Source of the DNA: Escherichia coli
Lineage (GTDB): Bacteria; Pseudomonadota; Gammaproteobacteria; Enterobacterales; Enterobacteriaceae
Assembly: GCF_009931435.1 (NCBI RefSeq)
Contig: NZ_CP043414.1
Strand: one strand, 5' to 3'
Length of the DNA stretch: 64,000 bases
Shown piece after piece: positions 9,979-13,853 of the stretch. Below the pieces are notes generated by a model. The model worked only from the letters and a program-made list of their open reading frames with translations, was not told the origin of the DNA and did no database searches. The position numbers were made by a program, and so were the translations under genes. Numbering within the stretch: position 1 is the stretch's first letter; each line of letters starts with the position of its first letter.

Positions 9979-10630
9979 GTTTCAGAATCGGTTAGTGGGT
10001 ACGATCGTGCTGGTGGCGCTGGGGGTGATTGTACTTCCAGGGTTGCTGGACGGGCAGAAAAAGCATTATCAGGATGAGTTCGCGGCAATCCCTCTGGTGC
10101 CGAAAGCGGGCGATCGCGATGAGCCTGATATGATGCCAGCCGCCACCCAGGCGTTGCCGACACAGCCGCCGGAAGGCGCAGCGGAAGAGGTGCGGGCAGG
10201 TGATGCTGCCGCGCCGTCGCTCGATCCGGCCACTATTGCAGCTAATAACACCGAGTTTGAACCGGAACCTGCACCGGTCGCCCCACCGAAGCCGAAACCG
10301 GTGGAACCGCCTAAACCGAAGGTTGAAGCACCACCTGCGCCGAAGCCAGAACCGAAGCCGGTCGTGGAAGAAAAAGCAGCGCCAACGGGTAAAGCTTATG
10401 TTGTGCAACTGGGCGCGCTGAAAAATGCCGATAAAGTGAATGAGATTGTCGGTAAGCTGCGCGGTGCCGGCTATCGGGTTTATACGTCGCCATCCACGCC
10501 GGTGCAGGGTAAAATTACCCGTATTCTGGTTGGGCCAGATGCCTCGAAAGATAAGCTGAAAGGTTCGCTGGGTGAACTCAAGCAGCTTTCTGGCTTAAGT
10601 GGCGTGGTGATGGGCTATACACCGAATTAG
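9968..10630 (+). CDS. dedD: Cell-division SPOR-domain protein DedD
   Basis: The ORF-track frame starts at TTG 9950; likely GTG start at 9968 (VASKFQ...). N-terminal TM helix, Pro/Ala/Lys-rich linker (PKPKPVEPPKPK) and C-terminal SPOR-like domain; overlaps the folC 3' end. Confidence 0.8.
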   Translation: MASKFQNRLVGTIVLVALGVIVLPGLLDGQKKHYQDEFAAIPLVPKAGDRDEPDMMPAATQALPTQPPEGAAEEVRAGDAAAPSLDPATIAANNTEFEPEPAPVAPPKPKPVEPPKPKVEAPPAPKPEPKPVVEEKAAPTGKAYVVQLGALKNADKVNEIVGKLRGAGYRVYTSPSTPVQGKITRILVGPDASKDKLKGSLGELKQLSGLSGVVMGYTPN

Positions 10631-10639
10631 TACGGTTTT

Positions 10640-10988
<349 letters not shown>

Positions 10989-11015
10989 GCCCGATGCTGC
11001 AAAGGCATAAAAAGT

Positions 11016-11050
11016 CGATGGCGTTGAATATTTTTTCAGCGCCATTTTTA
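11016..11050 (+). terminator. Terminator-like hairpin closing the folC-dedD transcription unit
   Basis: ggcgttgaa-tatttttt-cagcgcc hairpin followed by a T-rich tract. Confidence 0.4.
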
Positions 11051-11074
11051 TTGATGCGTGGGAAGGAAATCCCT

Positions 11075-11090
11075 ACGCAAACGTTTTCTT
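11075..11090. promoter_or_regulatory. PurR operator (pur box) of the cvpA-purF operon
   Basis: acgcaaacgttttctt matches the PurR box consensus (aCGCAAACGtTTTCnT), about 57 bp upstream of the cvpA ATG. Confidence 0.7.
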
Positions 11091-11146
11091 TTTCTGTTAG
11101 AATGCGCCCCGAACAGGATGACAGGGCGTAAAATCGTGGGACACAT

Positions 11147-11635
11147 ATGGTCTGGATTGATTACGCCATAATCGCGGTGATTGCTTTTTCCTCTCTGGTT
11201 AGCCTGATCCGCGGCTTTGTTCGTGAAACGTTATCGCTGGTGACATGGGGTTGTGCTTTCTTTGTCGCCAGTCATTACTACACTTACCTGTCAGTCTGGT
11301 TTACGGGCTTTGAAGACGAACTGGTTCGAAATGGGATTGCCATCGCGGTACTGTTTATCGCGACACTGATCGTTGGCGCTATCGTGAACTTCGTGATAGG
11401 TCAGTTGGTTGAGAAAACCCACCTGACGGGCACCGACCGGGTGCTGGGCGTCTGTTTCGGTGCGTTGCGCGGTGTGTTGATTGTTGCTGCCATTCTCTTC
11501 TTTCTCGACTCTTTTACCGGAGTGTCGAAAAGCGAAGACTGGAGCAAATCACAGCTGATCCCGCAGTTCAGTTTTATCATCAGATGGTTTTTTGATTATC
11601 TGCAAAGCTCGTCAAGTTTCTTGCCCAGAGCGTAA
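11147..11635 (+). CDS. cvpA: Colicin V production membrane protein
   Basis: 162-aa hydrophobic ORF immediately upstream of purF. Confidence 0.85.
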   Translation: MVWIDYAIIAVIAFSSLVSLIRGFVRETLSLVTWGCAFFVASHYYTYLSVWFTGFEDELVRNGIAIAVLFIATLIVGAIVNFVIGQLVEKTHLTGTDRVLGVCFGALRGVLIVAAILFFLDSFTGVSKSEDWSKSQLIPQFSFIIRWFFDYLQSSSSFLPRA

Positions 11636-11671
11636 GTGCTCTGAGATGTGGCTTAACGAGGAAAAAGACGT

Positions 11672-13189
11672 ATGTGCGGTATTGTCGGTATCGCCGGTGT
11701 TATGCCGGTTAACCAGTCGATTTATGATGCCTTAACGGTGCTTCAGCATCGCGGTCAGGATGCCGCCGGCATCATCACCATTGATGCCAATAACTGCTTC
11801 CGTTTGCGTAAAGCGAACGGGCTGGTGAGCGATGTCTTCGAAGCTCGCCATATGCAGCGTTTGCAGGGCAATATGGGCATTGGTCATGTGCGTTACCCCA
11901 CGGCTGGTAGCTCCAGCGCCTCTGAAGCGCAGCCGTTTTACGTTAACTCCCCGTATGGCATCACGCTTGCCCACAACGGCAATCTGACCAACGCTCACGA
12001 GTTGCGTAAAAAACTGTTTGAAGAAAAACGCCGCCACATCAACACCACTTCCGACTCGGAAATTCTGCTTAATATCTTCGCCAGCGAGCTGGACAACTTC
12101 CGCCACTACCCGCTGGAAGCCGACAACATCTTCGCCGCCATTGCTGCTACAAACCGCTTAATCCGCGGCGCGTATGCCTGTGTGGCGATGATTATCGGCC
12201 ACGGTATGGTGGCTTTCCGCGATCCTAACGGTATTCGTCCGCTGGTACTGGGGAAACGTGATATCGACGACAATCGCACAGAATATATGGTCGCTTCCGA
12301 AAGCGTTGCGCTCGATACCCTGGGCTTTGAGTTCCTGCGTGATGTCGCCCCAGGCGAGGCGATTTACATCACTGAAGAAGGGCAGCTGTTTACCCGTCAG
12401 TGCGCTGACAACCCGGTCAGCAATCCGTGCCTGTTCGAGTATGTTTACTTTGCCCGACCAGACTCGTTCATCGACAAAATTTCCGTTTACAGCGCGCGTG
12501 TGAATATGGGCACCAAGCTGGGCGAGAAAATTGCTCGTGAATGGGAAGATCTGGATATCGACGTGGTGATCCCAATTCCGGAAACCTCTTGTGATATCGC
12601 GCTGGAAATCGCCCGTATTCTGGGCAAACCGTACCGCCAGGGCTTTGTGAAAAACCGCTATGTTGGCCGCACGTTTATCATGCCGGGCCAGCAGCTGCGT
12701 CGTAAGTCCGTGCGCCGTAAACTGAACGCCAACCGCGCTGAATTCCGCGATAAAAACGTCCTGCTGGTCGATGACTCCATCGTGCGTGGTACTACTTCTG
12801 AGCAGATTATCGAGATGGCGCGTGAAGCCGGAGCGAAGAAAGTTTACCTCGCTTCTGCGGCACCGGAAATTCGCTTCCCGAACGTTTACGGGATTGATAT
12901 GCCAAGCGCCACGGAGCTTATCGCCCACGGTCGTGAAGTGGATGAAATTCGCCAGATCATCGGTGCTGATGGTTTGATTTTCCAGGATCTGAATGATCTG
13001 ATCGAAGCCGTCCGTGCGGAAAACCCGGATATCCAGCAGTTTGAATGCTCGGTGTTCAACGGCGTTTACGTCACCAAAGATGTTGATCAGGGCTACCTCG
13101 ATTTCCTTGATACTTTACGTAATGACGACGCTAAAGCCGTGCAACGTCAGAACGAAGTGGAAAATCTCGAAATGCATAACGAAGGATGA
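11672..13189 (+). CDS. purF: Amidophosphoribosyltransferase
   Basis: 505-aa ORF; N-terminal MCGIVGI (Ntn Cys nucleophile); PRPP-binding motif [13 protein letters not shown]. Confidence 0.95.
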
Positions 13190-13283
13190 TGACTTCGCTC
13201 AGGGTGCCGGTCTGGCACCCTGACTTGCAACTCCCGCCGAAATCCTGCAAAGTCTGGCTGCAAGTCTGACAGGGCAACTATTT

Positions 13284-13853
13284 ATGAAACGACTTATTGT
13301 GGGCATCAGCGGTGCCAGCGGCGCGATTTATGGCGTGCGTTTATTACAGGTTCTGCGTGATGTCGCAGATGTTGAAACGCATCTGGTAATGAGCCAGGCC
13401 GCGCGCCAGACCTTATCCCTTGAAACGGATTTCTCCCTGCGTGATGTGCAGGCATTAGCCGATGTCACGCACGATGCGCGCGATATTGCCGCCAGCATCT
13501 CTTCCGGTTCTTTCCAGACGTTGGGGATGGTGATTTTACCCTGTTCAATCAAAACCCTGTCCGGCATTGTGCATAGCTATACGGATGGCTTACTGACCCG
13601 TGCGGCAGATGTGGTGCTGAAAGAGCGTCGCCCGCTGGTGCTCTGCGTGCGTGAAACACCGTTGCACTTAGGCCACCTGCGTTTAATGACTCAGGCGGCA
13701 GAAATCGGTGCGGTAATTATGCCTCCCGTTCCGGCATTTTATCATCGCCCACAATCCCTTGATGATGTGATAAATCAGACGGTTAACCGTGTTCTTGACC
13801 AGTTTGCGATAAATCTACCCGAAGATCTCTTTGCCCGCTGGCAGGGCGCATAA
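13284..13853 (+). CDS. ubiX: Flavin prenyltransferase UbiX
   Basis: 189-aa ORF; flavoprotein motif GISGASGAIYG. Confidence 0.9.
   Translation: MKRLIVGISGASGAIYGVRLLQVLRDVADVETHLVMSQAARQTLSLETDFSLRDVQALADVTHDARDIAASISSGSFQTLGMVILPCSIKTLSGIVHSYTDGLLTRAADVVLKERRPLVLCVRETPLHLGHLRLMTQAAEIGAVIMPPVPAFYHRPQSLDDVINQTVNRVLDQFAINLPEDLFARWQGA

Follow-up and report, generated by a model that had tools for sequence, protein, structure and literature searches.

The 16-bp sequence ACGCAAACGTTTTCTT, located upstream of cvpA at positions 11075–11090 of the window (the whole 64-kb stretch of Escherichia coli DNA analysed here), is almost certainly the classical 'purF operator' of cvpA-purF-ubiX, a real and functional PurR site that is already known. 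For the strain from which the window derives, this assignment rests on sequence identity with E. coli K-12. The preliminary description of this DNA had put forward a near-consensus PurR box at this place, the co-repression of cvpA and purF as one operon and, with it, a tie between CvpA and purine regulation. The letters of the box were found exactly as claimed, and each of the three points is already in the literature. The features on which the analysis bears are as follows (all on the + strand).

11017–11046, +: intrinsic-terminator-like hairpin followed by a T run, 3′ of dedD (terminator scan)
11075–11090, +: PurR operator (PUR box), ACGCAAACGTTTTCTT; imperfect palindrome of 16 bp centred on CG, covering roughly −35 to −20 in the cvpA promoter
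11095–11103, +: putative extended −10 element TGtTAGAAT, read from the sequence (TG at 11095–11096, hexamer TAGAAT at 11098–11103)
11104–11109, +: G+C-rich discriminator GCGCCC between the −10 element and the start, strongly conserved, with C at the start
11110–11111, +: transcription start of cvpA promoter p1 (Mendoza-Vargas et al. 2009)
11147–11635, +: cvpA, inner-membrane protein (colicin V production protein), first gene of the operon (NCBIfam NF008100)
11672–13189, +: purF, amidophosphoribosyltransferase (TIGR01134, 543 bits against a cut-off of 350)
13284–13853, +: ubiX, flavin prenyltransferase (NF004685, 310 bits), third gene of the unit according to the literature

The PurR box, its operon and the surrounding locus

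Compared with the palindromic PUR-box consensus ACGCAAACGTTTGCGT, the 16-mer agrees at 14 of 16 positions. More specifically, its left half-site ACGCAAAC is perfect and its central AAACGTTT is intact, and the right half-site GTTTTCTT departs from GTTTGCGT through T replacing G at box positions 13 and 15 (11087 and 11089 in the window). The box begins 72 nt upstream of the cvpA ATG (11147) and is the sole place in the 64 kb, on either strand, that comes within three mismatches of ACGCAAACGTTTGCGT. A position weight matrix (PWM) was derived from Table 1 of Cho et al. 2011 (PMC3159470), using the 27 PurR motifs that remain once the cvpA site is removed to avoid circularity. With this leave-one-out matrix the box scored 22.0 bits, which is the highest score in the window on both strands and lies within the range of 12.0–25.3 bits spanned by the 27 ChIP training motifs; such a scan had been suggested in the preliminary description as a check. 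Among 300 null sequences as long as the window, generated with a first-order Markov model, only 3 contained any site reaching 22.0 bits. The second-best match scored 13.2 bits (465–480, itself a training site) and the best non-training site 13.0 bits, and the scan revealed no second PurR site above 13.2 bits elsewhere in the window, such as a roadblock inside cvpA or purF. The sequence at 465–480, ACCAAAGCGATGGCAT, is the motif that Cho et al. 2011 assigned to a weak 'fabB-mnmC' ChIP region; it sits about 400 nt into the fabB coding sequence (ORF 63–1283, beta-ketoacyl-ACP synthase I, 805 bits) and is not intergenic.

The same site has been bound experimentally. In K-12, Cho et al. 2011 (PMC3159470) reported a PurR ChIP-chip peak at cvpA-purF-ubiX whose motif, AAGAAAACGTTTGCGT, is identical to the window 16-mer read on the opposite strand. 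This peak (log2 1.77) was seen in the adenine-added condition only (PMC3159470), which fits the dependence of PurR on its corepressor hypoxanthine and is not evidence against binding. Cho et al. class the cvpA-purF-ubiX site among the previously characterised PurR sites, place such sites generally between the −35 and −10 elements, where they act on initiation, and count purF among the genes directly repressed by PurR (PMC3159470). The cvpA-purF regulatory fragment of EHEC is shifted by PurR and is a standard gel-shift target (Robertson et al. 2018, PMC5829826). Maciag et al. 2011 (PMC3141248), citing Rolfes & Zalkin 1988, assign cvpA, purF and ubiX to a single PurR-controlled operon, and cvpA is elsewhere given as 'repressed by PurR' (PMC9501238). 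When transcriptomes were decomposed into independent components, cvpA-purF fell into the purine-responsive 'Pur-1' iModulon (PMC8376909). The tie between CvpA and purine regulation is thus supported by the PurR-regulon and Pur-1 literature, and the link itself is not new: later papers trace it to Makaroff & Zalkin 1985, Rolfes & Zalkin 1988 and Fath et al. 1989. Structures of PurR have been solved (1PNR and relatives), and a paper on a 'PurR-guanine-purF operator complex' appears among the references of the cited literature. The purR gene lies outside the window and is very probably present in the source strain, being found in 5424 of 5426 complete E. coli genomes.

The chromosomal gene order around the box is accD-folC-dedD-cvpA-purF-ubiX-argT. 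The cvpA reading frame codes for 162 residues and matches NF008100 with 331 bits (cut-off 264), in agreement with the RefSeq annotation of near-identical E. coli loci. According to the literature, both colicin V production and resistance to deoxycholate require CvpA. PurF catalyses the first committed step of de novo purine synthesis. The three genes lie on the same strand with gaps of 36 nt between the cvpA stop and purF and of 94 nt between purF and ubiX, and scans of both gaps found no terminator-like or promoter-like match. The proposed co-repression of cvpA and purF as an operon is supported by the 36-nt gap without a terminator, together with the description of cvpA-purF-ubiX as one unit under PurR; co-transcription itself, and the membership of ubiX in the operon, are taken from the literature.

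The locus is part of the E. coli chromosome. A 1.1-kb query was at least 80% covered at one place in 5131 of the 5426 complete genomes (with dedD, cvpA and purF annotated), and the 121 nt around the box were present once in 5425 genomes, with at least 99% identity in 5281 of them. The window and K-12 MG1655 agree at every base of the box and of the stretch from there to the cvpA ATG, and upstream there is one substitution, at 11059. The dedD-cvpA spacer (10631–11146) measures 516 bp against 258 bp in MG1655 (+258 bp). Positions 10638–11000 of this spacer hold a tandem array of four REP-type units with start-to-start distances of 76, 91 and 91 nt, where MG1655 has one unit. Three of these units (10678–10748, 10769–10839 and 10860–10930) match Rfam naRNA4 (RF02564), a REP-derived nucleoid-associated RNA, with 79–81 bits against a gathering threshold of 59.5. 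REP copy number differs among E. coli strains, and many BLAST matches break into two pieces at the array.

Between the array and the box, the hairpin at 11017–11046 consists of a 12-bp stem and a 6-nt loop followed by TTTTTATT. It folds with −18 kcal/mol (z = −4.15; 0 of 200 shuffles as good), and its mean column identity is 0.905 in Enterobacteriaceae; it is not kept in more distant genera. This hairpin is probably the dedD terminator, which would insulate the cvpA promoter from upstream transcription. A K-12 intergenic probe (IG2428784_2429041, about 10889–11146 in the window) was found by Maciag et al. 2011 (PMC3141248) to be transcribed in vitro antisense to cvpA, and is among the probes whose signal differed between sigma-S and sigma-70 RNA polymerase (ratio 1.71).

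Promoter anatomy, repression and the leader

For cvpA (b2313), Mendoza-Vargas et al. 2009 (PMC2760140) give −37 from the start codon as the known start of p1, which Makaroff 1985 determined by nuclease mapping, and report −36 from their own data. With the ATG at 11147, these values put the start at 11110/11111 in the window and the box at about −35 to −20. The hexamer TAGAAT then lies at about −12 to −7, 7–8 nt 5′ of the published start, and both its position and its conservation suggest that TGtTAGAAT serves as the −10 element. The end of the box is separated from TAGAAT by 7 bp and from the TG of the extended −10 by 4 bp. The cvpA promoter has no good −35 hexamer; the box covers the −35 region and the larger part of the spacer. 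A generic sigma-70 −35/−10 scan of 10500–11800 found no promoter, a blank that we attribute to the poor −35 region and the extended nature of the −10 element; since a mapped start exists, it is not taken to mean that the promoter is missing. G+C-rich discriminators are typical of promoters that ppGpp/DksA inhibits, and the cvpA-purF promoter might also respond to the stringent response via GCGCCC.

With purines plentiful PurR, a repressor of the LacI/GalR family, takes up hypoxanthine or guanine as corepressor, a requirement that is stated in the literature. The PurR dimer then occupies the imperfect palindrome, its monomers sitting on the half-sites to either side of the central CG step. In structures of PurR bound to DNA, the two half-sites are each read by one monomer, and the central CpG step, which is intact in the cvpA box, is opened up by the hinge helices. 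Bound PurR would fill the space of RNA polymerase at −35 to −20 and so block initiation, and all three genes of the transcript (cvpA, purF and ubiX) would be lowered jointly. As the box is located immediately 5′ of the extended −10, bound PurR should exclude RNA polymerase, a steric effect to which both the geometry and the general literature on pur promoters point.

Control at the level of the leader RNA was also considered. A hairpin between GCGCCC (11104–11109) and GGGCGT (11124–11129), with seemingly compensatory changes in a few taxa, was rejected because the mapped start comes only after its 5′ arm and because both the fold and the covariation are weak: the fold was no better than that of shuffles (z = 0.00), and across 86 sequences the covariation score, with two pairs changing on both sides, was matched by 121 of 500 shuffles. 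The 36–37-nt leader contains a GGA within ACAGGATG (11113–11120) and, about 20 nt further on, GGGA at 11138–11141 in the ribosome-binding region. These two GGA motifs, the first of which is kept in most taxa, are reminiscent of CsrA targets; a full-text literature search for CsrA with cvpA returned nothing relevant, which leaves CsrA-type control unsupported. An Rfam scan for riboswitches and other cis-regulatory RNAs (10400–13400, E ≤ 1) gave only the REP-derived naRNA4 in the repeat array, with no match in the cvpA leader or between the genes.

Conservation and alternative explanations

A scan with one genome per species yielded 80 loci with close CvpA relatives, all in Enterobacteriaceae, of which 79 had enough upstream DNA. 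The best upstream PWM match was the identical 16-mer in 78 of these 79, at 70–75 nt from the ATG, and the remaining locus differed by a single substitution. Column conservation within the family was 0.999 for the box, 0.998 from the box to the −10 element and 0.39 further upstream. Six more distant Enterobacterales (Photorhabdus, Xenorhabdus, Dickeya, Serratia, Pantoea and Sodalis) were added via protein search. All six keep the order folC-dedD-cvpA-purF-ubiX and carry a box that is identical or at most two bases off, with diverged flanks. Within these genera, the block 11076–11103, which comprises the box and the extended −10 (CGCAAACGTTTTC[T/G]TTTTCTGTTAGAAT), is fixed. The spacing between the box and the −10 element is likewise fixed, and the ATG follows at 70 to 87 nt across the Enterobacterales examined (71 to 87 nt in the six genera). 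TGtTAGAAT is nearly invariant in the 86 Enterobacterales sequences, the exception being one locus (L072) with TATTAT. Three box positions deserve separate mention. Sodalis has G at position 1. At position 13, the non-consensus T is found in 86 of 86 Enterobacterales sequences and also in a Haemophilus influenzae prediction. Position 15 separates Photorhabdus, Xenorhabdus and Sodalis, which have the consensus G, from Enterobacteriaceae, Pantoea, Serratia and Dickeya, which have T.

As the box overlaps the promoter core, conservation alone does not separate PurR binding from promoter constraint. The block could in principle be conserved merely as a core promoter, made of the −35 region and the spacer of an extended −10 promoter, its likeness to a PUR box having no function. 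The near invariance of the whole of 11072–11110, beyond the box alone, and the overlap of the box with −35 and spacer positions are what this reading would predict. Spacers and non-consensus −35 regions, however, are not normally kept base for base across families, and such a reading leaves aside the 22 bits obtained with a matrix made from other PurR sites, the adenine-dependent occupancy by PurR in vivo in K-12 and the gel shift of the fragment in vitro. Furthermore, the T-to-G change that Photorhabdus, Xenorhabdus and Sodalis show at position 15 brings the box closer to the PurR consensus. We therefore consider a purely promoter-based conservation very improbable. Still more remote is a chance match without function: some 16-mer with at most two mismatches to the consensus occurred in 6 of 100 dinucleotide-preserving shuffles of the window (mean 0.06 matches), but the position in the promoter of a purine operon, the identity with an experimentally bound site and the invariance in 78 of 79 species rule this out.

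Accepting the box as a PurR operator, it might control cvpA alone, with purF transcribed mainly from a promoter of its own in or after cvpA and no co-repression as an operon. An EHEC strain with an in-frame cvpA deletion still grows without purines, as expected if purF has a separate promoter, but a non-polar deletion inside an operon predicts the same outcome. The blank scans of the 36-nt gap argue against a separate promoter, as do the treatment of cvpA-purF-ubiX as one unit and the polarity of cvpA mutations on purF, the latter as related in literature citing Fath et al. 1989. In addition, the cvpA box is the only strong PurR site near purF, a well-established PurR-repressed gene, and the cvpA-purF linkage is tight in all six of the other Enterobacterales genera. 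Independent control of purF is thus hardly to be expected, and joint repression of the operon from the cvpA box is the reading that we retain.

Comparison with known operators and significance

The purF operator of E. coli K-12 shares with the window the same 16 bp, the flanks up to the ATG, the downstream genes and the transcription start. K-12 differs only upstream, through its single REP unit in place of four and the substitution at 11059; operator and promoter are without difference. The other E. coli PUR boxes (such as purT, purHD, purL, purMN, purC and purEK) likewise follow the form ACGNAAACGTTTGCNT, with 16 bp in an imperfect palindrome around a central CG; most of them overlap the −35 to −10 region as the cvpA box does, and a score of 22.0 bits is typical of them. 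The purT box reads ACGAAAACGTTTGCGT, whereas the right half-site of the cvpA box has T for G at positions 13 and 15. The cvpA box lies at a promoter, in contrast to the purB and purR sites, which are inside reading frames and act as roadblocks (PMC3159470), and to the carAB PurR site, which is far upstream at −128.5. Outside Enterobacterales, the prediction mentioned above for H. influenzae (Pasteurellales; Sinha et al. 2013) concerns the same gene pair and the same 16-mer, AAGAAAACGTTTGCGT, at 82 nt from the ORF, and is a computational one. Other operators of the LacI/GalR family, such as lacO, are likewise short palindromes that are bound by dimers and overlap or adjoin the promoter. The hinge helices of these repressors insert at the central step and bend the DNA. 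LacI is released by its inducer, whereas PurR requires its corepressor in order to bind.

The purF operator and PurR form one of the best-studied bacterial repressor-operator pairs, for which crystal structures of the complex of PurR with purF operator DNA exist besides ChIP-chip and gel-shift data, and the site described here is textbook biology; finding it again adds nothing new on purine regulation or on CvpA. The conserved co-transcription of cvpA with purF is a puzzle that the literature has already recognised. It is conceivable, though we hold it rather unlikely, that the imperfection of the operator (T at position 13, with fixed spacing) is itself under selection, either because the weak right half-site also serves as promoter spacer or because its weakness would keep repression leaky. 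The purine pathway also feeds thiamine synthesis. If leaky repression were true, a basal supply of the PurF product would be kept when purines are abundant, which would refine a known system.
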